A stretch of 64,000 nucleotides of DNA, from contig CM097886.1 in assembly GCA_044892525.1 (NCBI GenBank), positions 35,898,001-35,962,000 on the forward strand. The letters are read 5' to 3'. Positions 1-22,733 of this stretch are shown piece by piece. This DNA is from Schmidtea polychroa (taxonomy: Eukaryota). Below the pieces are notes generated by a model. It ran no database searches. It worked only from the letters and a program-made list of their open reading frames with translations, and was not told the DNA's origin. The position numbers and the translations under genes were made by a program. Numbering within the stretch: position 1 is the stretch's first letter; the number at the start of each line of letters is the position of its first letter.

Positions 1-3000
1 AGGCTACAGGCCGAGGAAGAGAGGATAAAACAAGAACGCAACCAACAACGACAAGAACAACCATTGCGAATAAATATGATGAAGTTAGTAAAAGACATGA
101 AGAGCCAGTATTGCTACAATTACGGGAAAAGCCCAAGGGTAGTACCCATGACTGAACCAGAAAAGGTAAAAGAAATAACAACGGAAATGAAAACAGAGAA
201 TTCAACCACGATTTTAAAAGGAAACCAGAGAACTCAGAAAATATTCTGGAAAAAGATAAAGGATAAAATCGAAAAAGAACATAATAAAGCGAAAACCGAG
301 ACAGAAGATGAAAATAACAAGAGCGAGGAACAAACCAGTCAACTAAATCACCAAATGCTACAAGAATTAGAATCAGAAGAAACAACAATATTCGAAAGAA
401 AGAAACTAAAGAGAGTACCAAGGATGAGAAACTTGCAAATCAATATGATGAAAAGGACAAAAGATGTAGCATCGTCAGACGAAGAAGAAGATTATGTAAG
501 TAGTTTGGGTGGAGAAATACTACAGCCGAGTGAAATAAGCGAACCCCCAAAAGGGGAAATCAAAGAGGAAGAAAGCGGAAACGAGATAACCAGTGAAAGT
601 GAAGACGAAGATATCGAAATAAAGTTGAGAAAAGCAAGGGAGGAAGCGATAAAACAGGTAGCCGAAATACTCCCAGTAGTAGTGAGGAACCAAGAGTTCA
701 TCGACGTAATACCATTCAGGCGATTCGTGCAAAAAGTGATGAAATTGGAAAGAAACGAGAAAGATCTAATACCAAACGAGGAAAAATCAATTATAAAAAA
801 TTATATGGAAAAAATGAAGCAGGCCGATACCACGCGGTATGTAATAAAAATTGGAACGAGTAGAGGACTTGAAAGAATGTGGATAAAAAATACAGTCACC
901 GACGAACTTTTCGATTGGATACGAGAACATTTGGGAAGTTCGAGAAAGAAAGAATATCTGTATCAATACCAAGGAGAACAGATCAAACCAGATATGCACT
1001 TAGTAGATGCACTAATATGGCCAGGAGAAACGCAAATACTGAAGTTGCATAAAGAAAAACAACCAGCCAACCTTTACGATTGGGCTAAAGATGCCAAGGC
1101 AGAATATGATTTTAATATCAAATTGAAATTAGAACAAATAAAACAATGTACTCTGAGACGAAACCTGGATAAGCTGATCAAACAAATTCAAGAACAAGTA
1201 GAAGACAACTGGGATTTACTCATCACCAGACGAGCCCCAGCCATGTACGAACTAATGAGCCGGTTGCGAGATACAGAAATGCTCCGAATGAGTGATTGGA
1301 GAACCATAAATTTGATCCACAAATATGGAAGGTTAAAAGAAACCCAGCCACAGAGGTTGGAAATAACCATATGGTTACCGAACGAAGAAAAACGACGAAT
1401 AAAAATGAGCAATCAGAGTACAGTGGATGACTTGGTATCAAAAATAAACCAAGAGATAACGGAAAAGGTACGTAGCGAAAGTAGTGATGGTATGGTGGAT
1501 GATGTAGTCATGATGTACGATAAGATAATATTACGAACGGAGGACGACACCTCGTTAAGCGAAATGGGTATGTGGGACAATCATCAGATAATCAGGATAG
1601 TACCAATGGATGAATTCCGAACAAGAGATGTAACATATCAAAAAGAAATACGAGACCGGATGAAAACGTTATATCGAAAATCTACAGAAATAATTGAAAT
1701 CCATCAACAATGGTTAAAAGAAAAAGAGCTACAAGGAAAAATCACGAAATTAAATACCAGATCTTGCAGACGAACCCCATGGGAAAGAGTGTGGAATGCA
1801 GAAAGTAAGGAATGGGAAATCCGGAAAGGAACCTTCGTAGAAACAGACATCGGTGAGACAGAAAGTGAATCGGAGGAAGAAGAAGAGGAACCCCCAGAAT
1901 ATGAAGAGGAAGCAAGGGGACAGACATCAGATGACGAAAGCGAGACGGATGTCACATCAGAAAGCGAAAATGAAGCGAGACATATTCATGCAATGAGGAA
2001 AAAGGAACGGGAATATGCTGATATGGACGGCGAGGAAGCGACGGAAGCAAGAGAACGAGAAGAGACAGAAAGGTATAAACAATTAGGCGATATCTTAGCA
2101 ATGGGAGCGAAAAATCAAAAACGCCAAGTAGTAGCGTTGGCTAACATCATCTTAAAGACATCAGAGAATATCCACAATCTGAGAGGAATGGCAAAGGCAA
2201 TAGAGGAATACCGGCAATATAATGAATGGTATCCAGAACAGCTAGAACAAATTATTCGAAAATGGAGAAATCAGGAATGGGCACAAGACACCCAGGAGAG
2301 GTATCACATCCAAATCAAGTATCCGGACAAGAGCATCGAGGAACTAGAGGTGCATCCAACAACAAAAATTAGAGAATTAAAAAAGAAATTAGCATATGAA
2401 ACTCCATTCCATCTGCAACTATTCGGAAAATCACTAGACGATAATGCAGACGTCGGAATAACACCCATGAGATTGGAAGAGACAAATGTGTTAACAATGG
2501 CAGAAACGTTGGGGAAACCGTTAAAAAGGAAAAGTAAAATTATTAAACCAACAAAAGGCAGCTTGAGTACTCCAAGTCCGAACAAAGCACCAAGTAAATC
2601 TAATGAAACTGAAGAAGTTGAAGAGATAATCCTGGAAGATAGTGACGATGAACCAGGAGAAAGATCACCGCTATTAGTAAGATGGCCGACAGGAGCCGAA
2701 ATGTGGACTAACAACCAGCCATCAACGAGTTATCAACAACCCACGAAACTAAACATCAAAGAAATCATCGACAATACTACGGAAACCGAAACGGATGAAC
2801 AATTCCAGAAGCAAAGAGAACCAACGAAAGTAACACCAGAAAGTCAAACCGACAAAATAATAGACGAATGGAATGAGTGGCTAAGAAATAACGATAGCTC
2901 ATTACCCAGAACGGATAACGAAAGAAATCCGAATTACGAAAATACCAGAGAAGCCGGAACGATGATGGAAAAACGGGCAAAAGGAAGACCTAAGAAACAA

Positions 3001-6000
3001 GGAGAAAAGTCTGAGTTAAAAACCAAAGAACAATTAAAGCAAGAACAAGGGCAAGTTCGATTAGAAAAATTGGATAAAATAGTATGGGATCTAAAGGAAG
3101 CCCAACCAACGATCGAAAGAGGAGAAAAATGGATACGAGAATTGTTAAAAGATATATTAATAATAACAAACCCACAACTTAGACGTTTGTGGCAACGGAA
3201 AGTAGCCAGTACGGAAGCTAGACAATTATGGCACACCATTTCGGGGATAATCCCAAAGTTAATCAAAGAGAAAACGAAAACCACCAAAACGGATTGGGAC
3301 GAAACAAAGAGAGTGATTGAGCAGCTCACGACAAATGCAAATGATGACGAACATCACCTAGTGGTAATCACGTATTTGATGTATAATTTGATGGGACTAG
3401 CTGCGAGGAAAATACCAAATAAACAGTTTGCAAATCATGTGGAAATGACCGTTTTAATCATAGAGAATACTATTGAACCACATATTATTCGTGCAGGAGG
3501 ATGGAAAAGACTAATACAAGCGCCACGGAAAAATGAGCAAGAAAGGTCGATGCAAGTTAGATTGAAAAAACTGTTAAATGAACTAGAATGGGAACTACCG
3601 ATGAAAGATCCCGCAAGCAGAAAAGCATCAATAAATTCGTTAATGATGACTATGATGATATGGATGTTGTGCACAAGTGGAGCAACAGGCTTCACCATCT
3701 ACGATTGTGACAATATGATAATGAGAGATAAATACTCATTGAGAGACATAGAAGAATGCAGACAAGCCTCACCCAACAAATTGGACATCGTGAGAACAAA
3801 AGTTACTTACCATGTATATCAAGAATCAGATTTCATCAGAACGCAAGCAAGGGAATGCGTAGTATCAAAAAAGGTACTCGCATATTACTGTGGACAATAT
3901 TCGTATTCGACTCTTATACTACCCGGTCTGGATAAGGAAATCGTATCAATACAACGAGAGGATTGTAAAGAGCTATTTAGAACCGGAGCGCTAAAAATGC
4001 ATAACGGAGTGACAATTCACGGACAAACTGGAATGATTAAAACCGAAAGTGTTTACGTATCCGGAAAAGTAAAATCATCAGATGGGTCATGTAACGGAGG
4101 GACGTATACGATCCGAGGCGAGGTAATATCGGGAGTTGTAGTGATCGAGTCTTACACGGTCGAATTAAAAGAATACGAAGCGCAATTTGACGCAAATAAT
4201 TACCAAATGAAGACCAACCCAGCGTGTAAAGCTACAGAAAACGTATGCAGGACAGGAGTATCAACTATAATCTATGAAGCTAATACCCAAAAATGCCGAC
4301 TCCAACTGTTAAAAAGTGCTTTGTTCAATGAAGTAAAAGGAGAAATATATGAGAACGAGAACGACGAGGATGGAAACGACAGAGTGAGAATGCGAAATGG
4401 AAAACCAATGCCACCATCTCCCAGAGAAAAGAGACTTTCAACGCAGAAGACACCAACAGCATTAATCACAGACGATCCAGATCTAGGTATGAGGTTTATC
4501 AAAGAGAAAGAAACCACCAAATGTGACAGTATAGTATATAAAACCAATTACGCAGGCATCTATATGTCGAGACAAATAATCGATAGAGCAGTGGGAAAGA
4601 TAGCAACGGAGGACGTAAAACTATACTTATATGCAAATAATAAAATGGATTTTCTATTTCATCGTGGACAAACGACCTTGCAAAAAGTATATTACGATCT
4701 GATACAAAACGATTGTTCATTGAATAAAGAAATATTGAAAACAAAGCTAGCTATTGCGATAACGCACCCAGATAACACGATGCCATCACTCCCATTACCA
4801 GATGGACACTTTGGTAGAATGGTAGGAGAAGTGATGTACACATACCAGTGTACCAAGACGTATGCACGAATGCCAGAAAAATCCATACTACCCGAAAAGA
4901 GATGTGCAAATGAATTAGAAATCCGTTATAAAGGACAAAATCGATTCGTCCAACCAGTCACTAGAATTATGAATCCAGTGGGTTTCTACCCAAATCTCTT
5001 TAACTGTTCTAATGCATACGGACCTTTATATGAAAGGCCCGATGGGAAATGGATGATGTTACCGGGAAAAACCATATCCGAGGAGCCCAAGAAATTTGGA
5101 TTAATAGAACTCGCCACAGAGCTGGATTTCAAACCTATAGACGTGTCAAACGGTGGTATGTATTCCCCGGAAGATCTAGAAACAGCACGACTTAACGTAC
5201 TCTTTCCAGCCAGACGAGAATCCATTTTGTCTAATATGGTAACAATAACTGGGGGCACCAACTATCAATCAGGCCCGAATTACGAGCTGCTATTATCGCC
5301 AGACCATTTTCAACAAGCTACGTCAAACATGATGAAAGCAATGTGGGGAAGATTCTTAGTTTTTGGACAAATGATGGCCGGGATATTAGGGATCATACTC
5401 ATAATTCAGATAGTCAGAGTAATACTAACACAAATGTTAGCTTGTTTCGATATATACAAGCGGGAAAAGAAAGTTAACTGGAAAATGATAGTAGGTTTCT
5501 TACCATTTTTAGCTAAGACCATGGTATTACATGGCCACTCAAAAGACATCCATCGGATAAAGCGATTGATAAAAATATTAACAAAGATTAAAGGAACCGA
5601 CGAAGAAGTAGGCAGACGATTCCGGAAAGTAATGTACGATGAGGCAACAAGACGACAATTGAAAAAGAATAAGCCAAAATTCTTGGACCGATTTAGAAGC
5701 CAATCATCTAACAGCGATAGTGACGACGATGATAACGGGAACGATAAATGTCTTTATCCAAACAGAAACCCAAACGAAAAACCAATGGAAACGGCACCAT
5801 ATTGGGAAAAGGAAAAGACAAACACCTGGATCGCCAATGGAAGCTATATACCACCGGATATCGTGGGACCACAAGCAGCTTTGACCATGACACAAAATAT
5901 GTATCCGCAATTACCGAGCCAACCCGGTATGCATTATATGCCGACACGACGTACCAAAAGTGTAGATCAAGCAGATGACGTAAGAACAATCGCAGCAATG

Positions 6001-9000
6001 AGTCTGCCTGGAGGTCCAGCAGTAACAGTTATGATTCAAATCAATGGTAAAGAAACCAATGCTATGATAGACACCGGAGCTAATGTATCAGCGATAGCGA
6101 TTAATCAAATCCCCAGTAAACACTGGAAAAATATCGAATCAACAACAATTCACATCATAGCATGTAGTAAAGAAACAGTGGACGTGGTCGGAAGATGGTG
6201 GACTACATTGAGATACCAGGACAACGAAATTGAAACGTATTTGGCAGTAATACCAAAACTTAGCGTACCATGCATAATCGGAACGGATTTGATGCCAGAA
6301 TTGTTAAAAGAAGTCGTAATTGACTTAACAACCATGTGTTTAAAAGACAAAACCGGTAGAATATGCAAAATGAATGCAGTCATCAGATGTCCAGAAAAAA
6401 TAATAGTACCAGCAAAATCGCAGATGATTTGTCAGATAAAAGTGGATACGGGTATGGAAGGAGAAGTTATCTTTGAACCAAGCAAGTCATTCGAAAAGCG
6501 ACGAGAATTACCACTCGCAAGAGAAATAATCACAATAAACCAAGAAGGAGTGATACCGCTCAACATCACGAATTTCGAAGAGGAAGACAAAATCATTTAT
6601 GAGAACGAAAAATTGGGAAGATTGACCCCAATGATGGACATAGAATTACCGAAAGTGACCAACGAGATGATCAAAGATGATGAATTATGGACAATAGATA
6701 GTATGTTGTTGACGAATGATGAAAAGAAAAAATTACACCGATTGTTGGTAGAATATAAAGATATATTCGCCATCTCAGACTTAGACTTGGGTACATGCGA
6801 TGTTACCCTACATGCAATACCCCTCATAGATGAAACTCCAATTGCATTAAGACCATACAAGCTAGCAGAAATGCAAAAAGAAATAGCCGAAGCAGAAGTA
6901 CAAAAGATGCTGGACGCAAAAGTAATCGAACCAAGTTGCTCACCTTGGCAATTCCCAGTGGTCATGGTGAAAAAGAAAGATGGCACCCAACGATTCTGTA
7001 TCGATTATCGGAAGCTAAACGCAGTGACCAAGAGAGATACCTATCCATTGCCGGACATCAATGAGATGTTATTGATGTTGCAAGGGGCAGCATATTTTAC
7101 TTCTTTAGATCTAAAAAGTGGATACTGGCAGATTAAAGTCAAAGATGAGGACAAAGAGAAAACAGCTTTCACGTTGGGACGAGATCTATATCAATTCAGG
7201 AAAATGCCATTTGGACTGACCAACGCACCAGCATCATTTCAACGGTGTATGAACTTTGTCACCCATGGAATCAAACAATGTATGGTATATATTGATGATT
7301 TACTAATCTATTCAGCGACATTTGAACAACATCTAGAAGATATCCGAAACGTATTTATTAGATTAAGACAGTGGAAACTCAAACTCAAACCATCAAAATG
7401 CGATTGGGCAAAGGAAAAAGTCACGTTTTTAGGACACATAGTGTCAGCTAAAGGAAAGGAGCCAGATCCAAGAAACATTGAGAAAATAAAACTATGTCCA
7501 GCACCGAAAACTGTCACCCAAGTTCAGGAATTTCTAGGATTATGCGGATACTATCGCAAATTTATCAAAAATTATGCAGGAATTGCAAAACCAATCCAGG
7601 AATTAGTAAAGAAGGATATTTCGTTCATTTGGGAAAAAGAACAACAACAGGCGTTCGAAACGCTGAGAGATAAACTAATCGAAGCACCTATCCTCGTACA
7701 CCCAGATTTTAAGAAGCCATTTCTATTGGCAACGGATGCAAGCGGGTACGCGGCAGGCGCGATTCTGGGACAATTAGACGATGAGGGAAAAGAGAGAGTA
7801 ATCGGGTATTACAGTCGAACATTCAAAAAGCACGAAAAGAACTATTCGGTAACAGAACGAGAAGCATTGGCTATAATACAAGCTATCAAACACTTCCGAT
7901 ATTTACTATGGGGACATGAGATATGCATAACCACGGATCATCAACCATTAGTGTGGTTAGGGCAACATAAAGAAGCGTCCAGTAGACTGATGCGATGGGC
8001 CATGCAATTGCAAGAATACTCCCCATTTATAAAATTCAAAGCGGGAAGAGCAAATGCCAACGCCGATTGTATGTCAAGATTTATTTTCCCAGATTTGGTG
8101 GATTCAGAAATGCAACGCATATGCTTAATAGTAGCGGAAGATTTGGATTTCTGTCAATTACGAAAGGACCAACAAGAGGACGCGGAATTAAAACAAATTA
8201 TCGATTATGTAAAAACCGGAAAGACAGAGGTATATGCGAAAGACCAAAAATTAAAAGAACATATGGATAAACACCGACACCGATATATTATAGAGAAAGA
8301 TTGGTTGCTGATAATGGATGGGGAAAAACGATTAATGTGTATACCGGAAAACCGACGAAAAGAGTTACTAACGCAATATCACGATGGGAGATTGGGAGGA
8401 CATATGTCATCGAAAAAGACGTTAGCAAGAATGAAACAGAAATATTTTTGGCCTACGTTAACTGAAGATGTAACCGAATGGGTAAAAAATTGTCTAACTT
8501 GTGCAACCAGGAAGAATACTGGATCGAAATGGAAAGCACCTTTAACGCCAATGCCAGTACCAATAGAACCAATGACAATGATATCCATGGACGTAGTTGG
8601 TCCACTACCAGAGTCAGATAAAGGAAACGTTTACATTCTAGTGATCACAGACTTTCTTACGAAATTCCCAGAAGCATTCGCGATGCCAGACCAAAAAGCT
8701 AAAACAATCGCAAAAATTTTGGTAGAAGAGATATGTTGCCGATATGGAACACCAAAACAAATCTTAACCGATCAGGGAACTAATTTTATGAGTGAGATAA
8801 TGAGCGAAGTAACAAATTACTTCAAAATAGCAAAACTAAGAACATCTCCATACCACCCTCAAACCAATGGGATGACGGAAAGATTTAATGGAACACTTAT
8901 ACAAATGTTATCAAACTACGTTGACCGTCACCAACGAGATTGGGACGAATATATAAACCTATGTCTTATGGCGTACAGAATGTCGATTCACGCATCAACG

Positions 9001-12000
9001 AAAATGAGCCCATTCAAATTAATGTACGGAAGAGAATGTAACATGCCAATGGACCTGGAATACCAACCACCGATATCGCAGTATATGGAGATCGATGATT
9101 ATGTTACGAAATTCAAGGAAAGAATGCAAGAAATTTGGGAAACTGCGGGATTGAATATCAAGTTCTACCAGGAAAGTTATAAAGATTTACACGATCGAAA
9201 GAAAAACGTGAAGCAACATACGTTCCAAACAGGTGATTGGGTAATGATAGAAACCCCGGAATTAATTCCAGGAACCGCAAAAAAGTTACAACGCAACGGA
9301 AAAGGACCATATGAGATCTTATTCGTAGGCGAAACTAATGTAAGAGTGAAATTGGTAAATAACCCCTTTACCAGACCAATATACGTAAACGTGGCACGAT
9401 GCAAATCAATTCCAAAAACAGCCACTAGTCAACCAGAAGGCCGTACATTAACCACACGTTCGCAAACCTACCGAATGAACATGATGCAACAACTCGCAGA
9501 ACCGATCACTGGACGATTAGGTATCCAACCATCAGAAGCGGAAAAGATTGTAAAAGAGGTAAAAATTAAAATACCTGGATGGGCAAAAGATCGATTAGAT
9601 TTCGAAATATTAGGAGGATTATTGACGATGATCGAGAACTATGCAAATAGAGAAAGGACACACCCATTATTGCGAGTAGTCAAAAGCCAATGGCCAATAT
9701 TATTTACAATAACAGATCATTACGGAGACACACCATTACACAAACTCATGAAAGTAGGTAACAACGAGCAAATACTAGAAACAATAGAAGCATTTCACGA
9801 CTGCAAGCGATCAACAGAACAAACAAACAACCAAGGTTACACACCATTAATGATAGCCGCAAACAGAGGCAAAACAAAAGACATTATAACCGCATTACTC
9901 GATACCGGATCGAAAATAACTACACAAGACCACGAGCGGAAAAACGCTCTACATCATGCTATCGAAGGGAGAAGTACCGAGGCGTTCACGTCATTGATGG
10001 AACTACTATCATATGAGGACAATCGGGAAGTCGGAAACATGTATGATGGATTGTTAACAGCGATCAAAGAAAAACTGACGACAATTACCGAAATATTAAT
10101 TACATGGAGAAATCCAATTCGAAACGATTATATGATCAACGTAAACGAAGCGTTCACGAGAGGAGAGAACACGCTGATGAGAGAAGCTATGAAAGGACAT
10201 CATTTATTCGAAATCCCGAATCAATTACTAGAACGAGGGATAAAATTCACAAATCACAAAGACGAACAGTTAACAAAAAAGCGAATCGACACATTCGAAA
10301 AATCACTATTCCAATTTACTAACCAAGTACGAAATAAATATTGGGAAACGGTAAGTGTGTTATATATGATGGACACGATGAATAACATCCGCGAGAATTA
10401 CATGGATATTATCCAAATACTTACAGCAGAGGAACGAATCAATAATCCAAACGGAAAGAAAATGAAAATAAAGTATGAGAAATCCAGGGAATCAAAGTCA
10501 ACAACGAACCAAACGGTCACAAACAACGTCATCGAAACCAAATCAATGAGTATAGATCAAGAGGCAATAATACGCAAAGCAAAAGAAGTGTTCTTTGAGG
10601 AAATGCTAGAGCTGCCAGACGAAATAATATTGTCCAAAATAATAAAAGCCGTACACACATACGCAAGAGATCAAACCACGGGTTTAGATATCGGGAAAAT
10701 CAAAACCTTCTTGCCTCGAGCATTTACGATGGTAACGAAGGATTCCAGAACACCCCTACAACAAGCAATACTAGCGGCGAAAGAAAATAGAGCAATAACG
10801 ATCGTGAGAATCCTTGGAGAGATGGGCGAGGAAACCAACACGAAAAATGAACAAGGTGAAACCGCCATGATGTATGCAGCTATAACGAAAATACACCCAA
10901 AAACACTCCACATCCTACATCAATCAGGATCGAAACTAGACGAAAAGTCCAATGAAGGAAATTCCACCTTGGACTGGGCAACCATACAGCCAAACTTAGA
11001 AATGATCAGATTTATTTGCAAAAATGCGACAAAAGAAGAAGTTGAAAATATGTGCAAAAACACATCTCAGTTTCAATGGAATACGGTACGGAAAAATCTA
11101 GAAGCAATGAAATTATTATTAACCTGGAGAGTACCACAAAATAATAAATATGCGATAAATGTAAACGAATTCTACGAAAACGGAGAAAATGCGATGGTAA
11201 AGAATACCCTAACCAAGGGGGGGACACCTAAAATAATTTTAATAGTATTAAATAGAGAAGACCTAAAATTCACGCAAAATCAGAACGAGCAACAACGAAT
11301 TGGGAAACATCGTCGTATGCAATTGAGAGAGTTAGTTAAAGAATGGAATAGAAAGAGACATGCTGCAACGGGTAGAAAAGAGTTTGAATTCGAAGCAAAA
11401 TTAGCAAGAAACAGAGTGCTAACAGCATATCGCAGATTATTGAACGATATAAATGTCGAGGACGACATTTTAAACGACAGCGGGGGAGATAAACACGATG
11501 ACAATAACGGAAAAGGCCGAAAGGAGGATAAAGAGAAAAGAGAACAGGAGGAGGGTAAACCGGAAAACAAGGATTCGGATACGAAAAGAGAGGGAAACAG
11601 CCCGGGAACTAAGACCAAAGAGGAGGAAAAATCGAATAATGGAAAACAGAGGGTATGCCTACCTTTCACTAACAAAGAAATAGAGACAAATATGATATTA
11701 ATGATAATTATGCTTACCATGATAGAGTTAGTAACAGCTCAGGGAGGGACGAGAACGATAAAAGAAACCAAAGAAGCGGAGAATCAAGATAGCAAAGAGG
11801 ATGAACTAAAGCAAGAAAAGAAAAAGCAAGCACAAGAGCAGCAGTGGGATTTAAAGGAAGAATGGGACTTAAAGGAAAGGTGCATACTAGGAAGATGCAT
11901 GTCTAGAGCGTATCAGAAACTAGTACTGATAAATGAGGCCACAGAACCAATAACAGAAGTAAGAATACAAGAAGCATACCGAAATCGAGACGGGAAGAGA

Positions 12001-12693
12001 ATAACGAACGTCAAAGGAAAAGAGGTACACCTAGGAAAAGGTGGTGAAGTAGTAATAACGCAGATCCAACCTAGAAAAGAGCACAAAGTCTGTATTTCAA
12101 GATTAGGACCAGGCGAGAGATGCCATCAATATGTGACGCAGCAGCAGCCGCCGAAAGAATACACGGTTTGTATCTGGAGGAATGAATCAAAAAGAGAATG
12201 CCGACGATACCCGGGGAAAAGAGGAAAGAAAAGAAAAAACCACGACGAAAAGAACGAAGGAGGAAAGCACAAGAAAACTGGTGAGGAAGCTCAGGACAAC
12301 TATGTTTCGGAGGAAGAGATGGAAAAAATACAAAAGATGGCAAAGGAGGGTATGAACGAGGAAATAGCAAGAATACGGGAAAGGATGAAAGGAAATGGCA
12401 AAAGAGGAAACGAGAAAAGTACAGAAGCGATATCAACATTAACAAACAAGGAAAAACCAGAGAGTATAAGCGTGAAGCAGATGATGTGGATCAGTGGGAT
12501 AATAATAACAGGGGCATTCCTAATCATAACGGGGGGAACAATAAAAATAATTAAGGATAAACGACATCGCGGAGAACTGGAGATGACTCGAATCAGAAAT
12601 TTCCAACATCGAGTGAAACGACCAAGTGATATCAAACAAGAACAGTGGGTGGAGGCCTGGAACGCTCAGCGCCCTCCAAACTCACGTATATAG
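1..12693 (+). CDS. Giant polyprotein (Ubl x3, Bcl-2-like, Env, PR, RT, RNase H, IN, ankyrin, TM protein); 5' incomplete
   Basis: Frame is open from base 1 (RLQAEEERIKQ...); the track start at 64 is only a TTG. Motifs IDTGA, YIDD, TDASG, HDGRLGGH..C..C, DVVGP, TDQGTNF, TERFN, GPY. Confidence 0.95.
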   Translation, partial: RLQAEEERIKQERNQQRQEQPLRINMMKLVKDMKSQYCYNYGKSPRVVPMTEPEKVKEITTEMKTENSTTILKGNQRTQKIFWKKIKDKIEKEHNKAKTETEDENNKSEEQTSQLNHQMLQELESEETTIFERKKLKRVPRMRNLQINMMKRTKDVASSDEEEDYVSSLGGEILQPSEISEPPKGEIKEEESGNEITSESEDEDIEIKLRKAREEAIKQVAEILPVVVRNQEFIDVIPFRRFVQKVMKLERNEKDLIPNEEKSIIKNYMEKMKQADTTRYVIKIGTSRGLERMWIKNTVTDELFDWIREHLGSSRKKEYLYQYQGEQIKPDMHLVDALIWPGETQILKLHKEKQPANLYDWAKDAKAEYDFNIKLKLEQIKQCTLRRNLDKLIKQIQEQVEDNWDLLITRRAPAMYELMSRLRDTEMLRMSDWRTINLIHKYGRLKETQPQRLEITIWLPNEEKRRIKMSNQSTVDDLVSKINQEITEKVRSESSDGMVDDVVMMYDKIILRTEDDTSLSEMGMWDNHQIIRIVPMDEFRTRDVTYQKEIRDRMKTLYRKSTEIIEIHQQWLKEKELQGKITKLNTRSCRRTPWERVWNAESKEWEIRKGTFVETDIGETESESEEEEEEPPEYEEEARGQTSDDESETDVTSESENEARHIHAMRKKEREYADMDGEEATEAREREETERYKQLGDILAMGAKNQKRQVVALANIILKTSENIHNLRGMAKAIEEYRQYNEWYPEQLEQIIRKWRNQEWAQDTQERYHIQIKYPDKSIEELEVHPTTKIRELKKKLAYETPFHLQLFGKSLDDNADVGITPMRLEETNVLTMAETLGKPLKRKSKIIKPTKGSLSTPSPNKAPSKSNETEEVEEIILEDSDDEPGERSPLLVRWPTGAEMWTNNQPSTSYQQPTKLNIKEIIDNTTETETDEQFQKQREPTKVTPESQTDKIIDEWNEWLRNNDSSLPRTDNERNPNYENTREAGTMMEKRAKGRPKKQGEKSELKTKEQLKQEQGQVRLEKLDKIVWDLKEAQPTIERGEKWIRELLKDILIITNPQLRRLWQRKVASTEARQLWHTISGIIPKLIKEKTKTTKTDWDETKRVIEQLTTNANDDEHHLVVITYLMYNLMGLAARKIPNKQFANHVEMTVLIIENTIEPHIIRAGGWKRLIQAPRKNEQERSMQVRLKKLLNELEWELPMKDPASRKASINSLMMTMMIWMLCTSGATGFTIYDCDNMIMRDKYSLRDIEECRQASPNKLDIVRTKVTYHVYQESDFIRTQARECVVSKKVLAYYCGQYSYSTLILPGLDKEIVSIQREDCKELFRTGALKMHNGVTIHGQTGMIKTESVYVSGKVKSSDGSCNGGTYTIRGEVISGVVVIESYTVELKEYEAQFDANNYQMKTNPACKATENVCRTGVSTIIYEANTQKCRLQLLKSALFNEVKGEIYENENDEDGNDRVRMRNGKPMPPSPREKRLSTQKTPTALITDDPDLGMRFIKEKETTKCDSIVYKTNYAGIYMSRQIIDRAVGKIATEDVKLYLYANNKMDFLFHRGQTTLQKVYYDLIQNDCSLNKEILKTKLAIAITHPDNTMPSLPLPDGHFGRMVGEVMYTYQCTKTYARMPEKSILPEKRCANELEIRYKGQNRFVQPVTRIMNPVGFYPNLFNCSNAYGPLYERPDGKWMMLPGKTISEEPKKFGLIELATELDFKPIDVSNGGMYSPEDLETARLNVLFPARRESILSNMVTITGGTNYQSGPNYELLLSPDHFQQATSNMMKAMWGRFLVFGQMMAGILGIILIIQIVRVILTQMLACFDIYKREKKVNWKMIVGFLPFLAKTMVLHGHSKDIHRIKRLIKILTKIKGTDEEVGRRFRKVMYDEATRRQLKKNKPKFLDRFRSQSSNSDSDDDDNGNDKCLYPNRNPNEKPMETAPYWEKEKTNTWIANGSYIPPDIVGPQAALTMTQNMYPQLPSQPGMHYMPTRRTKSVDQADDVRTIAAMSLPGGPAVTVMIQINGKETNAMIDTGANVSAIAINQIPSKHWKNIESTTIHIIACSKETVDVVGRWWTTLRYQDNEIETYLAVIPKLSVPCIIGTDLMPELLKEVVIDLTTMCLKDKTGRICKMNAVIRCPEKIIVPAKSQMICQIKVDTGMEGEVIFEPSKSFEKRRELPLAREIITINQEGVIPLNITNFEEEDKIIYENEKLGRLTPMMDIELPKVTNEMIKDDELWTIDSMLLTNDEKKKLHRLLVEYKDIFAISDLDLGTCDVTLHAIPLIDETPIALRPYKLAEMQKEIAEAEVQKMLDAKVIEPSCSPWQFPVVMVKKKDGTQRFCIDYRKLNAVTKRDTYPLPDINEMLLMLQGAAYFTSLDLKSGYWQIKVKDEDKEKTAFTLGRDLYQFRKMPFGLTNAPASFQRCMNFVTHGIKQCMVYIDDLLIYSATFEQHLEDIRNVFIRLRQWKLKLKPSKCDWAKEKVTFLGHIVSAKGKEPDPRNIEKIKLCPAPKTVTQVQEFLGLCGYYRKFIKNYAGIAKPIQELVKKDISFIWEKEQQQAFETLRDKLIEAPILVHPDFKKPFLLATDASGYAAGAILGQLDDEGKERVIGYYSRTFKKHEKNYSVTEREALAIIQAIKHFRYLLWGHEICITTDHQPLVWLGQHKEASSRLMRWAMQLQEYSPFIKFKAGRANANADCMSRFIFPDLVDSEMQRICLIVAEDLDFCQLRKDQQEDAELKQIIDYVKTGKTEVYAKDQKLKEHMDKHRHRYIIEKDWLLIMDGEKRLMCIPENRRKELLTQYHDGRLGGHMSSKKTLARMKQKYFWPTLTEDVTEWVKNCLTCATRKNTGSKWKAPLTPMPVPIEPMTMISMDVVGPLPESDKGNVYILVITDFLTKFPEAFAMPDQKAKTIAKILVEEICCRYGTPKQILTDQGTNFMSEIMSEVTNYFKIAKLRTSPYHPQTNGMTERFNGTLIQMLSNYVDRHQRDWDEYINLCLMAYRMSIHASTKMSPFKLMYGRECNMPMDLEYQPPISQYMEIDDYVTKFKERMQEIWETAGLNIKFYQESYKDLHDRKKNVKQHTFQTGDWVMIETPELIPGTAKKLQRNGKGPYEILFVGETNVRVKLVNNPFTRPIYVNVARCKSIPKTATSQPEGRTLTTRSQTYRMNMMQQLAEPITGRLGIQPSEAEKIVKEVKIKIPGWAKDRLDFEILGGLLTMIENYANRERTHPLLRVVKSQWPILFTITDHYGDTPLHKLMKVGNNEQILETIEAFHDCKRSTEQTNNQGYTPLMIAANRGKTKDIITALLDTGSKITTQDHERKNALHHAIEGRSTEAFTSLMELLSYEDNREVGNMYDGLLTAIKEKLTTITEILITWRNPIRNDYMINVNEAFTRGENTLMREAMKGHHLFEIPNQLLERGIKFTNHKDEQLTKKRIDTFEKSLFQFTNQVRNKYWETVSVLYMMDTMNNIRENYMDIIQILTAEERINNPNGKKMKIKYEKSRESKSTTNQTVTNNVIETKSMSIDQEAIIRKAKEVFFEEMLELPDEIILSKIIKAVHTYARDQTTGLDIGKIKTFLPRAFTMVTKDSRTPLQQAILAAKENRAITIVRILGEMGEETNTKNEQGETAMMYAAITKIHPKTLHILHQSGSKLDEKSNEGNSTLDWATIQPNLEMIRFICKNATKEEVENMCKNTSQFQWNTVRKNLEAMKLLLTWRVPQNNKYAINVNEFYENGENAMVKNTLTKGGTPKIILIVLNREDLKFTQNQNEQQRIGKHRRMQLRELVKEWNRKRHAATGRKEFEFEAKLARNRVLTAYRRLLNDINVEDDILNDSGGDKHDDNNGKGRKEDKEKREQEEGKPENKDSDTKREGNSPGTKTKEEEKSNNGKQRVCLPFTNKEIETNMILMIIMLTMIELVTAQGGTRTIKETKEAENQDSKEDELKQEKKKQAQEQQWDLKEEWDLKERCILGRCMSRAYQKLVLINEATEPITEVRIQEAYRNRDGKRITNVKGKEVHLGKGGEVVITQIQPRKEHKVCISRLGPGERCHQYVTQQQPPKEYTVCIWRNESKRECRRYPGKRGKKRKNHDEKNEGGKHKKTGEEAQDNYVSEEEMEKIQKMAKEGMNEEIARIRERMKGNGKRGNEKSTEAISTLTNKEKPESISVKQMMWISGIIITGAFLIITGGTIKIIKDKRHRGELEMTRIRNFQHRVKRPSDIKQEQWVEAWNAQRPPNSRI
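835..1050 (+). other. Ubiquitin/SUMO-like domain 1 in polyprotein
   Basis: YVIKIG...LFDWIREHLG...YQYQGEQIKPDMHLVDALIWPGETQIL resembles the beta-grasp pattern; weakest of the three. Confidence 0.4.
1354..1605 (+). other. Ubiquitin-like domain 2 in polyprotein
   Basis: LEITIWLPNEEKRRIKMSNQSTVDDLVSKI...MMYDKIILRTEDDTSLSEMGM matches the Ubl pattern (TV.DL..KI; L.DD..LS..G). Confidence 0.6.
2299..2499 (+). other. Ubiquitin-like domain 3 in polyprotein
   Basis: YHIQIKYPDKSIEELEVHPTTKIRELKKKL...LQLFGKSLDD aligns by eye with ubiquitin [27 protein letters not shown]...LIFAGKQLED. Confidence 0.7.
3061..3525 (+). other. Bcl-2-like helical domain in polyprotein
   Basis: BH2-like IEPHIIRAGGWKRL preceded by amphipathic helices at BH1 spacing; the canonical NWGR is absent (DEHHLVV). 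The upstream part (NPQLRRLW...EARQLWHTIS) could alternatively be MADF/Myb-like. Confidence 0.6.
3628..5448 (+). other. Internal signal peptide + envelope (class III-like fusion) glycoprotein + TM anchor
   Basis: Hydrophobic LMMTMMIWMLCTSGATG then FTIYDC..YSLRDIEEC..YQE..REC..YCG: Cys spacing of chuvirus-type/retrotransposon-borne glycoproteins. NxS/T sequons (NCS, NYQS-like region); TM FLVFGQMMAGILGIILIIQIV. Confidence 0.8.
6001..6372 (+). other. Retropepsin aspartic protease
   Basis: VMIQINGKETNAMIDTGANVS and CIIGTDLM. Confidence 0.95.
6840..7560 (+). other. Reverse transcriptase (Ty3/gypsy)
   Basis: SPWQFPVVMVKKKDG, RFCIDYRKLN, LDLKSGYWQI, MPFGLTNAPASFQR, VYIDDLLI (YIDD at 7288-7299). Confidence 0.97.
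7700..8085 (+). other. RNase H (Ty3/gypsy)
   Basis: LATDASGYAAGAIL, YSVTEREALAI, TTDHQPL, NANADCMSR. Confidence 0.95.
8125..9480 (+). other. Integrase (HHCC, DDE core, GPY module)
   Basis: HDGRLGGH...CLTC; SMDVVGPLP; LTDQGTNF; GMTERFN; GKGPYEI. Confidence 0.95.
9721..11250 (+). other. Ankyrin repeats, two clusters (~9721-10250 and ~10741-11250)
   Basis: GDTPLHKL, GYTPLMIAA, KNALHHAI, RTPLQQAI, GETAMMYAA, GNSTLDWAT. Confidence 0.85.
11686..12693 (+). other. C-terminal type I membrane protein: signal peptide, FN3-like/Cys module, TM, short tail
   Basis: MILMIIMLTMIELVTA/Q; VVITQIQPRKEHKVCI resembles FN3 strands E-F; TM WISGIIITGAFLIITGG; ends NSRI*. Confidence 0.6.
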
Positions 12694-13213: not shown

Positions 13214-13298
13214 ACCAAACCTAGCTCAAAATGTAAATAATTGTAAATAAAATATCGAACCTGTATCGATAAGAACTATTTGTACATATAATTATAGA

Positions 13299-14687
13299 AT
13301 GGATAAACGACAAAGAGAAGAGTTCAGAGAGATTGTCGAGCAAGTCCGAAAATCTACAACGATCAGAATACACAAACATGTTACGTGCGGAATATGTGAA
13401 AAGTTGTTAAAGGAACCTCACCAAACGCAATGTGGATGCAGAGTATGTAAAGAATGTATCAGTGAAGCAATAAAGAATAGACCACAGAAGTGCCCGGTGT
13501 GTAAAGAGACACTAATATCGAGTTTAGAAGACACTAACGAGGATAAAGCCGCAGTGAAAGACATGTTAAACACCAACCTGGGATGCAAAAATGCCCCATG
13601 CGAATGGAAAGGAGTAATATGGAAGGTAGTACAACATATGGGAGAATGTATGTACCGAATTGGCCAGTGTGAAAGGTGCCATAAAACCATTCGAGCAAGC
13701 GAAGAAAAAGAGCATCAAAGGCAGTGTGAAGAGAGATTGGAAAGATGTGAACACTGTGGAGAAATAGATACGTGGATAAATCTCACCCTCAAACATCACA
13801 ATGTCCAAGAGGAGAGAGTATGTGCAGAGTTCAGTGGGGAATGCCCGAACGGATGCGAAGAAGGGAGAATAATAAAAATAGCCCAACACCTAAAAGAATG
13901 TGAGAAGAAAAGGATGATATGTGTACTAGGTAGATGGGGTTGTCAGAAATTACTACACCGAGGTGAGTTACCACATCATTTAGTAGAAAATGCTTCAACT
14001 CACGCAGAAATGTGGTCGACTGCGTTACAAGAAAGCGAAGAGAAAGTAAAACAAATGGAGATAGAGATAACATCGTTGAAAGTGTTAGTCAAAGAACTAC
14101 TAGAAGAAAGGAAAGCGTTCGAAGAAGCCCGAGCAAACATAAAGATGCAAATAAACCGAACAGAAATCAGTAATAATCAGGCCAAGGAGCTACATCAGAA
14201 AATACGGGAAATAAATCTAAATGAGATAACCCCAACAGCACCCTACATATGGAAAATAACGGGAGTAAAAGAAAGAATACGAAAAGCAAAAACCGGAGAA
14301 GAGACAAGAATAACAAGTCCTACATTCCATTCTTGGAAAAATGGGTACAAAATGAAAATGAAGATATATCCCAACGGGGACGGAACCGGATCAGATACGC
14401 ACTTTTCGATTTTCTTTCTGTTATGTAAAGGAGAATACGACGAAATATTAGAATGGCCGTTCCAGGCAAAAATCGATATTACCCTGATGAACAACCAAAG
14501 TATACATGAGCAAAGCTTCAAAACAACGGGGAATCAAATAGCTTACCAGAGGCCCCTCAACGAAGAAGGATCAGCAACAGGAGCACCCACGTTCATCTCA
14601 CAACAAAGAGTAGAAGATATGGCGAGAAATGATACCATATATATCAAGATGACCGTGAGGAAAGAGGAGAAGGGTAGAACGGAATAA
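13299..14687 (+). CDS. TRAF: TRAF-family protein (RING, TRAF zinc fingers, coiled coil, MATH), 462 aa
   Basis: CGIC..LLKEP.QT.CG.RVC..CI..CPVC; repeated C..C...H...C fingers; YIWKI, SPTF...GYKMKMKIYPNGDG...HFSIFFLLCKGEYD.ILEWPF; homolog at 50346-51734(-). Confidence 0.95.
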   Translation: MDKRQREEFREIVEQVRKSTTIRIHKHVTCGICEKLLKEPHQTQCGCRVCKECISEAIKNRPQKCPVCKETLISSLEDTNEDKAAVKDMLNTNLGCKNAPCEWKGVIWKVVQHMGECMYRIGQCERCHKTIRASEEKEHQRQCEERLERCEHCGEIDTWINLTLKHHNVQEERVCAEFSGECPNGCEEGRIIKIAQHLKECEKKRMICVLGRWGCQKLLHRGELPHHLVENASTHAEMWSTALQESEEKVKQMEIEITSLKVLVKELLEERKAFEEARANIKMQINRTEISNNQAKELHQKIREINLNEITPTAPYIWKITGVKERIRKAKTGEETRITSPTFHSWKNGYKMKMKIYPNGDGTGSDTHFSIFFLLCKGEYDEILEWPFQAKIDITLMNNQSIHEQSFKTTGNQIAYQRPLNEEGSATGAPTFISQQRVEDMARNDTIYIKMTVRKEEKGRTE

Positions 14688-17734: not shown

Positions 17735-18068
17735 TGTTGGGCTGAGTCGAGAATTTAATCGTTGAAAAATAAGAAAGTAGGGAAGTAGAACATTAAGAAA
17801 AATAAAAATAAAATAAATAAAATCAGAAATAAAATAGAATAGGATATAAGGAAAATAATAATTAAGACATAAGAATTAAAACAAAAAATAAAATTAAGAA
17901 AAGATTAAAATAGAACAAGTTGACAAATAAATAAAGAGGAATTCAAGAAATAATAAGGAAATTAAGGAAATAAATAGAAAAACATATTAAAAATAAAGAA
18001 AATAAGGAAAAAACAACCTAAAAACAAGAAAATTATATTAAATTAATAGAAATAAGCGGTACTCAACT

Positions 18069-18105
18069 CTGATTGGTCCGCACAAATAAGAATTTGATAT
18101 ATATA
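18069..18105 (+). promoter_or_regulatory. CCAAT box (reverse, ATTGG) and TATA-like element in LTR A
   Basis: CTGATTGG 18069-18076 and ATATATATA 18097-18105; copy B has CTGATTGG and TATATAT at the equivalent position (46761-46788). Confidence 0.5.
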
Positions 18106-18128
18106 CAACTACCAAAAACATTAAATTT

Positions 18129-18204
18129 ACTGTTAACCCCGAGCATTTCATAGGTAAGAAAGAATGTTTACTGTTTTCACTGTTAACCCCGAGCATTTCA
18201 TAGG
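18129..18204 (+). repeat. 26-bp direct repeat (period 50) bracketing a putative 50-nt GT-AG intron (18154-18203)
   Basis: ACTGTTAACCCCGAGCATTTCATAGG twice; first copy followed by TAAG giving GTAAG. Confidence 0.75.
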
Positions 18205-18627
18205 ATCGACACTACTAGCCAAGCAACCGTCATTCAGAAAACTCCACATCTATTCAAAACCAGTTCAGAGACCGAAATACCATTCATCACAATAATCAAC
18301 ATCCAACGGACCACCATTAGAACTATTTGGAACGAACAACATTGAACTTTGACTCAGCCTAACAATAGTAAGGGGTATTTCATTTGTTTATAGATTTATT
18401 TAAGTATTTGCAAAGCTAATAGTAATGTTAAATATTAACGATTAAATATTTTAGTTAACTCTCTTCATTTGATTCTCCATTTTAATAACTTTAACGTATT
18501 GATGGAATTTGTATTATTTAAGTATTTCAGAATTAATAAAATATTTTTATCCAGATGTCCGTATTTTATTTGAATTAAAGATTTTATAAATTTTCATTTA
18601 ACGAGTAACGTGGAGTTGAGATACTCC

Positions 18628-18819
18628 ATGTCATGGTATGAGGTGCCTTCGGGAGCTCAGCCGGTGGACATGGAGTATTTCAATCACGCAGCTAGATTGG
18701 GCCGAAATGTGAAGGCTTCTTCACGGGTCCTATCGCTGAAGATGCGACTGAATTATCACAATGGGTTATGGTTAAAAGAATCGCTGGTAGACAATGATTT
18801 CACAAAGATAGTCGTGTGA
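18628..18819 (+). CDS. Small LTR-encoded ORF-a (63 aa)
   Basis: VPSGAQPVDME and LKMR motifs recur in a frameshifted ORF in LTR B (46227-46441). Confidence 0.45.
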   Translation: MSWYEVPSGAQPVDMEYFNHAARLGRNVKASSRVLSLKMRLNYHNGLWLKESLVDNDFTKIVV

Positions 18820-20324
18820 ATGAAGGGATTTTCAAGGATTTGCACAGTGATTGAGGGCGTCGCATTCTTTTTTGTTTTTCTTTCGTCAAGTCGTTTTCGT
18901 AAATCTTACCCCTATTGAAAAATGAGATCCAGACAACGATTTAGTGAACTTCGTCAAAAATAACGACATCTCATAGTACGCTTCATCTGGAAACATGGTT
19001 TTATCAATTTAATTGCGACAACGTCTATTTGCCGGACTCAGTAGAACTGATTTCGTATGAAATTCCGTTATCATAGACCCGAGGTCATCTAGCCTGTCCA
19101 GATTGCATGTCAGGTTACGAAAGTATTCTAAAAACTTTAACTAACTCGAAACTATAAAATGCGAGATTCTACGAAAACCTCTCTAATATTATAATCAGAA
19201 AGTTTTTATAGACTTAGTTATTTCAAAAATTATAACAGGTAAAATATCACCAAATTTAATTAATAACATTTGTTTCTACAATAAGAGCCAGGTCATCACT
19301 GTATATATCCAAATTATTGAACCTGAGAGAAATTTTCGAATGGCTAAGGACAGGTTCCATCGAGACGGCATTACATCTGAATAGGAAAATCCGAGTAGAA
19401 TGACGCGAGTAGTAAAATGCTTCAGCATTTGGTGGAATTATTCCCTCGACGATCACTGAAAAGATCCAATAAATTTCCAAACGATGGTGATCATTCACAC
19501 AAGTTGATAAGGGTAAAATTCCGCGATGAGAACTGACGGCAGCATAAATCATGATTCAAATAAATCACTGTGCAGAGAAAATCATATGACAGCAGGATCG
19601 ATAAAATCACCGTGAAAATGGCATACACCAAGTGAGTGAGATAAGATAGTAGCCATACACGAATCCATGTGGTGAGAGCACAGAATATCGGACTAGCACA
19701 CATGATAGTCGCGACACGGGACATTCACAATAGGTCGATAATGTAATCAACTAGTTGACAGTAGTATCCGTAAATTTGGACATGTGTTATGACCGATGAG
19801 ATATCCCATTAGGGTGTTCAAGTAATGGCTGATGTAAACTCATCACATATTCTCAGACAAATGGTAGACAATATAGATAATCACATTCACTACCGAATTA
19901 AAAGTGCACTTCCAATAACAAATTTCGAATCAAAAAATATGTTGAGAATAGCGATAGTAACTTGTTTTTAATAAATTTAAATAGATAATTTATAGCAAGG
20001 TTTAGTCGCGTACTATAATGTCCCTCTACTAAAGCGTTATTATATTATTTCACCAATATTATATTTACACCCTATTAATTATTACGCCCCTCAGGTATAC
20101 AGTTAGATCAATAGAGAGTCAAAGTTAATAGCATGCGTCAAACCGATGGCATTTGGTTAAATAAACTGTTTCAACAAATAAGATCCGTGGTAAAACCGGA
20201 TTGTAGAATGAGTTTTCCTTTTTTTTTTTTTCGTCGGTCAAGCATCCACGAATGGCCGTGGGTCGTATCTAATTTATTCCAAAATCGTATGTTCTACATT
20301 TCATTAGTATTATTTATAGCAAGC

Positions 20325-21077
20325 ATGCTACCAACCACTAAATCAGCATTACGGCCGTGCTTCTCGTGCGCGGATAAAAATACGGTGATAAAGGACCTAC
20401 AAACTCAGATTGGACGTTACAAGAGGAAGATAGACGAGCTGGAAGGGACATGGTTTAGTCCCGCTCGGATGAAAGAGATCCAAAAGAAGCTCGATCGTAG
20501 CGAGCATTGCCGGGACGCGCTAATATCTGAGAGCCGTGCCCAAAGAAGTCTAATCCGAGAACAATCCGAGGCACTGCATAAGGTTTACGTGCAGGCGGCT
20601 ACAACCCGAAAAATAGTGCAGATTCCCATCCGAGAGGCCGATGACATCTTTCCGCCTCATCACAACCTTTCCTCGAATCCATCTCCACCGTTCAAGAGAC
20701 CGTGCCGAGACTGCGTCGAAACCGAATTGTCCCCCAAGCGACCAGATGTTGTCATCACGGGTACCAGTAAGCCCCCCACTGCTAGTCCATCCGTATCAGT
20801 CACCCTTCTGCAAGTGGCCTCTTCAAGCAAACCCAAGCGCAAACAACTCTCTCGTGCAGAGCGCAAGAAGAGACAGCGCGAGCGCGCCACTACAAAGCCA
20901 AACATCCCATCCATAGAGGATTCAACCAGCGGTGGCAACTCTCACGTGTCCATCGACCTAACAACGGGACCCTCGGCACGAATCATATCAGCCGCTGGCG
21001 TAATGTGGGAAGAGAACGCTTCCGAGTTTTTTAACCTCGACGAATTATTCGCCGACACTGAATGGGAGAAACAATAA
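20325..21077 (+). CDS. LTR-encoded ORF-b: CxxC, coiled coil, basic NLS, acidic/aromatic C-terminus
   Basis: LRPCFSCADKN shared with 43656-44420(-); NLS KPKRKQLSRAERKKRQR; ATG 20325 is preceded by TTTATAG. Confidence 0.8.
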   Translation: MLPTTKSALRPCFSCADKNTVIKDLQTQIGRYKRKIDELEGTWFSPARMKEIQKKLDRSEHCRDALISESRAQRSLIREQSEALHKVYVQAATTRKIVQIPIREADDIFPPHHNLSSNPSPPFKRPCRDCVETELSPKRPDVVITGTSKPPTASPSVSVTLLQVASSSKPKRKQLSRAERKKRQRERATTKPNIPSIEDSTSGGNSHVSIDLTTGPSARIISAAGVMWEENASEFFNLDELFADTEWEKQ

Positions 21078-21200
21078 AATCCCAGTGGTGGTCAGGATGA
21101 GGAACAAGGATCCGATCTATGTTGATTATGATGTTTTCTCTTCTTTCGACAAACGTTAGTAAAGTGTACAGCTGAATCCTTGTGTCATAACATTGAAATT

Positions 21201-21206
21201 AATAAA
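21201..21206 (+). terminator. Candidate LTR poly(A) signal
   Basis: AATAAA followed by T/GT-rich sequence, 120 nt after ORF-b; not verified in B. Confidence 0.35.
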
Positions 21207-21342
21207 TCTTGTTGTATTACACGTCTTCGTTCATGAATAATTAGACTTTAATTAAGTGGGTCGAGTAGAGAACCCGCGAGATCTAGTGAGAAATTCCCAA
21301 TTTGCATTCAGCGAATCCCGATAAGCGGTTGTGTAAGGAAAT

Positions 21343-21484
21343 GGACGTAAGCCCTTCTATCGGCAGTCGTGAATGGGAAGTCGAGGCCTCAGCAAGGAGT
21401 AGTTTTAAGGCAGAAGCTCACCTGCTTGCTGGCGTCTCGCCTGCATAGTGCAGTACCAACGTGAAGTGATTCACGGGCACTATG
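21343..21484 (+). ncRNA. Conserved cis-acting structured RNA near the LTR 3' end (copy A)
   Basis: Three helices covarying across LTRs A, B and C; invariant AGTACCAA bulge at 21452-21459. Confidence 0.8.
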
Positions 21485-22733
21485 TTGGAAGAAAGTTATG
21501 TGGGGTTTCACTCCAGGTTGACAAATCGGTGGCACCTTTTATTCGAGATGGACAATCAACCCTTAGACCCGTCAACGTGGTAGAGTGGTCAGCCGAGGTG
21601 TAACCCCAACAATGCTATTGCTGTTTTATGTATATTTTTGTTAATACTTTGTCATTTTCCTTATCCCAAGAGCCAAGAGTTCCGACGACTAGAGCGGCAA
21701 AATTGGTTTTGCATTTGTTACTTTTTCCAGTCTCGAGTGCTAATGTCCTATATATATTTGTAGTTGTCTACTCTAGGCGTCTGGAAGTTCTCTTCGTGAT
21801 CATAAGGTACTTAGATGTCTAGTATGCTTAATTTGTTATTACGTTTTGTTTTTATGATAAGGTCTGGTCGTAAGCATGTGTCGATACCAGGGGTTGGCAC
21901 GTAGAGTCTACTTAGAATCCTCTAGATATAAGTAACCCGGATACCCGCCATGTTTTTTATGGAACCGAAAACCGGGTAATTTTAGACTGGTATCCGGTTA
22001 ATTTCATTTAAATAATTTTTTCCATTATTTCAAATTAAATGCAAGAGCCGAATCGGTGTTCTTAAACGACTAACGTCTTTGAACGACAAAAAAGGGACAG
22101 CACTTAGCGGCCTATAGATTTCGAGATGAGCGAATGTATAGATTCGGATTATTTTGAAAGGATGCAGCTGCAAATACTAGCGATTAATTTTTGCGCTGGC
22201 GAATTAGAGATTTCCAAAAATATTTTTAATCTACATTGCATTGACCGGCCGATGACCGCGGCCCGAGGAGACTGAGCTTTCCTCGCGATATCCGTCGTTT
22301 TATGGTTAATCAATCCTTTTGTACCTGAAACATTAGTATATATTGCCTGAAAATCGAAAAATACGATTTAAGTTAATCGTTAGGCGAGAAGTCGGCTAGA
22401 CATCATTCAATAAGCACGAAGACACGTCAAGAATCGCGAACCTTCAATGTATTTATCTTTAAAAATATTTTAATTTTGAATTATCCTAAGCGTCTAAAAA
22501 GGTGTATGATATGCATGATCGTGATCTCAATTTATTTTTTTTCACTCTTTTTTGATTGATAAAATTTTAAAAAAATATTTAAATATTAGTATGACATTTT
22601 TAAAAGCTGATAGTCTTAAATAAAAATCCGTATCATTGTTGCAATAAATAATAATTATTTGTCACATTTATTATTACATTTTTCATAAAAATTCGGAAGA
22701 AAATTCCATATTTTTTGTAAACACTTGATTTGA

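Follow-up and report, generated by a model that had tools for sequence, protein, structure and literature searches.

The closest described systems to the locus analysed here are the Burro retroelements and a series of gypsy elements with herpesvirus-like envelopes. In Burro, an env located between the BCL2-like and protease (PR) domains was presented as the first case of an env placed in frame between the gag and pol regions; the 2019 text that describes it, PMC6431247, reports in its account of this env matches to mononegavirus fusion glycoproteins, draws a link to gypsy Env, and proposes the elements as proviruses. Envelopes of the glycoprotein B (gB) type have been catalogued in gypsy elements across animals in PMC13524379, whose main text argues for an ancient origin and describes, in Platyhelminthes, GAG-ENV-POL 'errantiviruses' with an HSV/gB-type ENV of cysteine type C1a, including six from Schmidtea mediterranea (Smed_errantivirus_1-6). 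That main text contains 0 matches for 'Burro', 'polyprotein', 'in frame' or 'accessory'. Chuvirus-derived insertions are covered in the relevant parts of PMC7642597 and PMC10084718; the literature covered also includes PMC8532177, PMC13465017 and PMC11410931. Both the kind of element and the kind of envelope presented here are already described in the portions of PMC6431247 and PMC13524379 that concern them; the present result adds independent fold evidence for that published work and, for an env of the Burro type, amends the class-I-type reading given in 2019.

A Burro-type element with an in-frame glycoprotein

Two complete elements were reconstructed from the window (the whole stretch of 64,000 nucleotides of Schmidtea polychroa DNA that was analysed) together with neighbouring genome stretches. 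Copy 1 runs from about -8489 to 21611 of the window (30.1 kb) between LTRs of 3877 bp that are 100% identical, and copy 2, on the minus strand, from 43121 to about 73764 (30.6 kb), with LTRs 99.95% identical; at the DNA level the copies are 79% identical to one another. Their PR-RT-RH-IN order, Ty3-type capsid, TG...CA LTRs and short target duplications (Table 1) make them members of Ty3/gypsy (Metaviridae), in agreement with the gypsy-type host proposed in an earlier, sequence-only reading of this locus. Matched by description, the anatomy is also that of Burro, with a length of about 30 kb, a giant ORF, and ubiquitin-like (Ubl), BCL2-like, env, Pol, ankyrin and MATH/TRAF parts, of which the Ubl and Bcl-2 segments lie below the Pfam cut-off here. 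The Bcl-2 match recurs at the same position in the relative P0005 (E 0.00096), again below the cut-off.

The likeness to Burro and GYPSM1, as those are portrayed in PMC6431247, extends to the ~30 kb size, the long LTRs, the single giant ORF and the presence of a MATH/TRAF gene, and the shared domains comprise Gag, CCHC, ubiquitin-like, BCL2-like, env, PR-RT-RH-IN and ankyrin, with env in frame between BCL2 and PR. By the same account the MATH/TRAF domain lies inside the 4873-aa ORF1 of Burro1, whereas here it is encoded by a separate ORF downstream of a 4732-codon frame. The Smed_errantivirus elements, as presented in PMC13524379, have the same gene order and were given the same class III assignment. 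The family in the window is not among Smed_errantivirus_1-6 as given there, the nearest being Smed_errantivirus_5 (~71/133 residues by eye); a second family in the genome (L038/L041), with a glycoprotein (G) 37% identical to that of the window, a 3334-codon ORF and 1.06-kb LTRs, corresponds by eye almost letter for letter to the Smed_errantivirus_2 segment in that source. Anakin, a BEL/Pao element of mosquitoes, is likewise an LTR element with a chuvirus-type G according to the pertinent part of PMC7642597, but it belongs to another superfamily, and the BEL/Pao env-like genes described lie downstream of the polyprotein rather than between Gag and PR; the Ty3-type capsid and the placement of G before PR exclude the present element from that group. 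Troyka elements, which in the description given in PMC12440569 are without env and have CG ends and 3-bp duplications, were also ruled out.

Table 1. Coordinates of the features discussed (positions in the window unless a neighbouring stretch is named)
Feature	Position	Strand	Details
Copy 1 polyprotein ORF, portion inside the window	1..12693	+	4732 codons stop to stop; starts ~1.5 kb upstream
Gag capsid and CCHC knuckles, copy 1	before base 1; L011:8840-9997		Retrotrans_gag E 1.2e-11, Ty3_capsid E 9.4e-6, zf-CCHC E 4.4e-13
Ubiquitin-like segment (weak)	2308..2412	+	Pfam ubiquitin E 0.0033, below cut-off
Bcl-2-like segment (weak)	3286..3504	+	Pfam Bcl-2 E 0.099, below cut-off; shortly before signal peptide
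Predicted internal signal peptide of G	3637..3690	+	uncharged 18-mer; putative small-residue cleavage site
Predicted class III fusion-protein ectodomain (chuvirus G / herpesvirus gB type)	3691..5346	+	552 aa, 14 Cys
Predicted transmembrane helix of G	5347..5445	+	hydrophobic, residues 553-585; basic residues C-terminal
Putative cytosolic tail of G	5446..5988	+	~180 aa, joins G to protease; predicted topology
Aspartic protease	6028..6303	+	Pfam RVP E 1.2e-9
Reverse transcriptase and RNase H	6967..8019	+	RVT_1 E 1.3e-35, RT_RNaseH E 5.9e-39
Integrase (zinc finger and core)	8341..8859	+	Pfam Integrase_H2C2, rve
Ankyrin-repeat region	9763..11013	+	Pfam Ank_2 E 1.3e-17, Ank_4
Second predicted type I membrane protein, polyprotein C-terminus	11680..12690	+	signal ~11680-11751, TM ~12472-12555; hydropathy
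Accessory RING-TRAF/MATH ORF	13251..14687	+	Pfam MATH E 5.9e-28
3' LTR of copy 1, 3877 bp	17735..21611	+	TG...CA ends; 4-bp target duplication ATGC
3' LTR of copy 2, ~4170 bp	43121..47291	-	TG...CA ends; 4-bp target duplication ATAT
Copy 2 polyprotein ORF, portion inside the window	52351..63999	-	4811 codons in all
Copy 2 G, ectodomain with TM	59620..61377	-	open; 90% aa identity to copy 1

Downstream of the polyprotein, the RING-TRAF ORF is accompanied by three other ORFs, and several smaller features were seen in and around the LTRs. Copy 1 has a 168-aa ORF next to the inner end of its 5' LTR (L011:5709-6212, plus strand), with a counterpart in copy 2; this ORF ends in a C-terminal RING finger (Pfam zf-C3HC4_3, E 3.7e-11) and had no BIR match in Pfam. 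ORFs of 250-320 codons lie inside the LTRs themselves (20115-21077 on the plus strand, 43656-44420 on the minus strand) and had no Pfam match. An identical run of 25 bases comes directly after the 5' LTR in each copy and begins with a 7-base spacer; the stretch that follows this spacer resembles a tRNA-Pro primer site. The sequence preceding the 3' LTR is no plain purine tract. Tandem repeats of ~74-80 bp occupy the leaders of both copies (L011 about 6800-7530 and L013 about 3450-4050). The interval separating the two elements holds a hAT transposase, open over 614 codons, that carries a BED finger (31520-33364, plus strand).

Sequence and fold of the glycoprotein

G comprises residues 1231-1816 of the frame at 1..12693, following a predicted internal signal peptide and upstream of the protease, in frame and with no stand-alone env ORF. 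Translation of positions 3691-5448 on the plus strand yields 586 residues without a stop. The sequence-only reading had proposed a Cys-rich ectodomain of ~550 residues beginning FTIYDC, with a YSL..IEEC motif near its start, a TM, and intact copies in both elements, and all of these are present: the ectodomain of 552 residues with 14 Cys starts at FTIYDC, YSLRDIEEC occupies residues 15-23, a hydrophobic helix follows at residues 553-585, and both copies are open at 90% amino acid identity. A type I topology (signal, ectodomain, C-terminal TM) is predicted by hydropathy and charge bias only, with 7 basic residues among the 35 directly after the TM; a hydrophobic stretch immediately N-terminal of G was found in 14 of the 14 polyprotein relatives checked by eye.

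G is a Monjiviricetes-type glycoprotein, as shown by a match to Pfam PF24664 (Monjiviricetes_fusion) that spans both halves of the Pfam model at 234.8 bits (cut-off 27, E 1.8e-69), and by a Cys scaffold in which each of the 14 ectodomain Cys is kept in 90% or more of the 95 relatives in the alignment. Sequence searches of the PDB gave 0 matches for G alone and, with a profile, weak gB matches (E ~0.01) that ranked below low-complexity artefacts. An AlphaFold model built on 95 sequences (mean pLDDT 89.7, pTM 0.68) was compared with known structures. Foldseek returned 115 matches in the PDB at E <=0.001, and every match listed was to herpesvirus gB, the best with an E of 4.3e-13 and a TM-score of ~0.43; TM-scores to solved gB were only ~0.4, at an rmsd of 11 A. 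In VIA-align, gB took ranks 1-5 of 48,161 chains (best Z 10.4, rmsd 6.8, 409 aligned). Among predicted viral structures in BFVD, glycoproteins of chuviruses or chu-like viruses took the first four places (E 8e-38, with TM-scores reaching 0.70), with qin-related, xinmo- and rhabdovirus proteins at lower ranks. The chuvirus-type, class III-like assignment made by the sequence-only reading is borne out by these profile and fold matches, and the structural similarity to viral fusogens on which it depended was found with both gB and chuvirus G.

The model thus provides good support for a class III fold of the gB, rhabdovirus G and gp64 type, in which a long central helix spans residues 311-358 (48 residues), while its structural agreement with solved gB is moderate. 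The nearest solved fold, herpesvirus gB (PDB 2gum, 6esc), shares the long central helix but only ~10% identity, and gB requires gH/gL and a receptor-binding protein, as stated in PMC13524379. Among named viruses, the G of Tacheng tick virus 4 (A0A0B5KJV8; Chuviridae/Monjiviricetes) shares PF24664, the Cys scaffold and the predicted fold, providing the BFVD match cited above; it differs in its identity of ~22%, in falling on a separate branch, and in being encoded by its own gene rather than within a retroelement polyprotein. Atlas features placed 10 of the 10 best named matches in the same family or clan, a result of low recognition value.

By its fold, G would resemble a class III fusogen in action. 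A candidate fusion loop lies at residues 68-73, between strands 48-67 and 73-77; it is aromatic or contains His in 19 of the 19 sequences listed, and C67 and C134 are conserved. The ectodomain carries a single N-glycan sequon, whereas the median among 77 other aligned sequences is 4.

The class III assignment differs from the link to gypsy Env made for Burro in the section of PMC6431247 on env, where HHpred gave the corresponding region a probability of 96.7% to gypsy Env. Homology to the class I-type proteins gypsy Env and baculovirus F would, however, be hard to reconcile with our searches: neither family is among the 21 Pfam families matched by 26 aligned members at E <=10, and no class I protein is among the matches listed in the Foldseek PDB, BFVD and VIA-align searches. 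Nor is there a conserved furin site, as the sole R-x-K/R-R motif of G (residue 245) falls in a low-confidence loop of the model and is absent from copy 2. The fold searches effectively refute a class I origin, which we consider extremely improbable, and the distinction drawn by the sequence-only reading from insect errantiviruses with baculovirus F holds for this protein.

Ancestry of the glycoprotein and selection on it

A phmmer search with G of 1.84 billion proteins gave 990 matches, the best of which were long proteins or fragments of 27-48% identity, followed by stand-alone glycoproteins of 620-760 aa. In most of the long relatives, Pfam places PR after G, often together with RT-RH-IN. 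Ten of the stand-alone matches were looked up and included one named virus, Tacheng tick virus 4; among the rest there may be env genes of retroelements, or endogenous copies. Word-index homologue searches, a method less sensitive than phmmer, found no relative with either G alone or the alignment A2, and scans of IMG/VR found no relative. Three oddities were noted among the relatives. A tandem pair of aspartic protease domains follows G in P0001, P0002, P0003, P0004 and P0015; P0007 (HBK71150.1), a G-PR-RT-RH-IN polyprotein filed as a Flavobacteriaceae MAG protein, is probably animal DNA in a bacterial bin; and P0149, of 1000 aa, has immunoglobulin domains N-terminal of its PF24664 glycoprotein.

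The sequence-only reading had taken G to be an independent env capture, and a recent event in which this planarian lineage acquired the G gene of a chuvirus would fit the observation that chuviruses are its best named viral matches. In addition, Gag-Env-Pol elements are not monophyletic in the Pol tree published in PMC13524379, which would allow for more than one capture or rearrangement, although the same source, in its main text, argues for an ancient origin. The trees place G elsewhere. In an unrooted FastTree analysis, a branch with support 91 separates the polyprotein-type G proteins (18 of 95 sequences) from the rest, and in an unrooted IQ-TREE analysis of 38 of those 95, run without a mixture model, a branch (98/95) sets 13 polyprotein-embedded G proteins apart from the other sequences, among them the G of Tacheng tick virus 4, the sole named chuvirus in the tree. 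Phylogeny had been proposed as a check; as to nesting within Chuviridae G, these unrooted trees show a branch separate from the one named chuvirus that they hold. The identity of G to stand-alone G proteins is only ~20-28%. Furthermore, when RT and G trees were compared for 11 of 14 elements (L045, L046 and P0011 were left out because the G motif anchor failed), 5 of the 5 starred RT splits were also starred in the G tree; that the G tree follows the RT tree argues for long co-inheritance rather than recent capture. The claim of an independent capture was therefore not upheld, and such an event seems to us quite improbable. Instead, these sequence comparisons suggest that G is part of an old retroelement clade, inherited together with Pol from an old Gag-Env-Pol lineage.

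The element has many recent intact copies. When G was scanned against the 781 Mb genome, 75 of 2817 candidate matches were scored, all 75 were ~100% identical and without an internal stop, and ~46 (hand count) lay inside the full 4732-codon frame. Contigs from three runs, of a type that is unknown or guessed, cover 30 of 30 bins, and none of the joints listed indicates a spliced env message, which contigs of this sort could not reveal in any case. Between copies 1 and 2 the G ectodomain has a dN of 0.062, a dS of ~1.7 and an omega of 0.036, so G is under purifying selection, which shows function. The linker region is comparable (omega 0.037) and the whole polyprotein is similarly constrained; with constraint throughout the polyprotein and dS near saturation, the selection signal is not specific to G. 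Since its in-frame position compels an open frame, G might be thought a dead passenger that stays open merely because Pol is translated through it. An open frame, however, accounts for neither this omega nor Cys residues that are invariant across distant families, and we give this explanation almost no credence.

A probable role on particles and a possible entry partner

We consider it probable that G is the envelope fusion protein of this Burro-type giant Ty3/gypsy element and acts on particles. A single polyprotein would be threaded through the ER, where the internal signal peptide (3637-3690) would place G in the lumen, signal peptidase would release its N-terminus at FTIYDC, and the TM would bring the chain back to the cytosol, with PR-RT-RH-IN-ankyrin remaining on the tail of G until the element's own protease cuts. 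Because Pol would be attached to the tail of G, it could reach budding sites via Env as well as via Gag. A candidate motif for this protease falls on the borders of PR, RH/IN and IN, and the G ectodomain contains none; in its strict form, which was defined once the sequence had been seen, it is present 5 times, compared with a mean of 0.4 in shuffled sequence. Trimers and internal fusion loops are established for class III proteins such as gB and rhabdovirus G, and G may likewise trimerise and fuse membranes through internal loops; a trimer prediction with three chains of residues 255-545, made without an alignment, scored 0.00 and left the fold uncertain. Another signal and TM, located at the C-terminal end of the polyprotein, could yield a further surface protein, and particles might then move between cells, for example from soma to stem or germ cells. 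The potential infectivity raised by the sequence-only reading is, on these grounds, a fair hypothesis.

Several points speak against an envelope role, among them the single sequon, the moderate agreement with gB, the hydropathy-only topology, and the fixed 1:1:1 output of Gag, Env and Pol, which is unusual for an enveloped retrovirus. The same fold could instead do a different job, with G fusing neighbouring cells or inner membranes, or anchoring Gag and Pol on the ER, rather than residing on free particles. Its in-frame fusion to Pol at fixed stoichiometry and its few glycan sites would suit such a job, and a related Burro is described, second-hand in PMC13465017, as active in stem cells, so that no infection step would be needed. 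On the other hand, relatives at 25-48% identity retain the full fusogen architecture together with every one of the 14 Cys and the hairpin of the candidate fusion loop; a mere anchor would need no conserved fusogen features, and their conservation counts against an intracellular anchor. We regard this alternative as unlikely.

The second predicted membrane protein encoded after integrase (Table 1) is a candidate attachment partner for G. By hydropathy, a second signal-ectodomain-TM protein is present in 11 of the 12 relatives that extend past integrase, with examples at L051:6238-7392 (minus strand), L045:9449-10279, L046:9964-11205 and L049:7661-8518, and there is almost no similarity between the ectodomains of different families. 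No family was assigned to it by Pfam (5 ectodomains, E <=10) or by Atlas. An L.P.T.Y-like motif, which would be suggestive of fibronectin type III, occurs in 7 of 11 of these sequences and was chosen after the fact. Since the same five ectodomains gave no fn3 match in Pfam at E <=10, Atlas gave no match, a profile of six relatives fails to pick up the protein in the window, and its model has a pLDDT of 40, a fibronectin type III identity is not claimed. No mention of such a protein was met in a word search of PMC13524379 or in the portions of the other literature covered here.

By analogy with herpesvirus entry, the element could be an infectious virus whose two-part entry machine is made from one polyprotein, with a class III fusogen, a fast-evolving receptor binder after integrase in the role of gD/gH, and Pol packaged via the tail of the fusogen; we put this forward tentatively and consider it doubtful. 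No reports of Burro particles were found in the literature searched. Were particles to be shown, an element that is very abundant and has been active recently in a model animal for stem cells would be an enveloped virus with a gB-like fusogen, and would permit a tractable test of how a gB-type retroelement envelope mediates entry without gH/gL, a question left open in the main text of PMC13524379. The conserved second membrane protein offers a concrete candidate for the missing entry partner.

A further small accessory ORF, at 16843-17511 on the plus strand and 47521-48174 on the minus strand, gave no convincing Pfam match; by appearance it has a signal peptide and a TM, and it is possibly a third surface protein.
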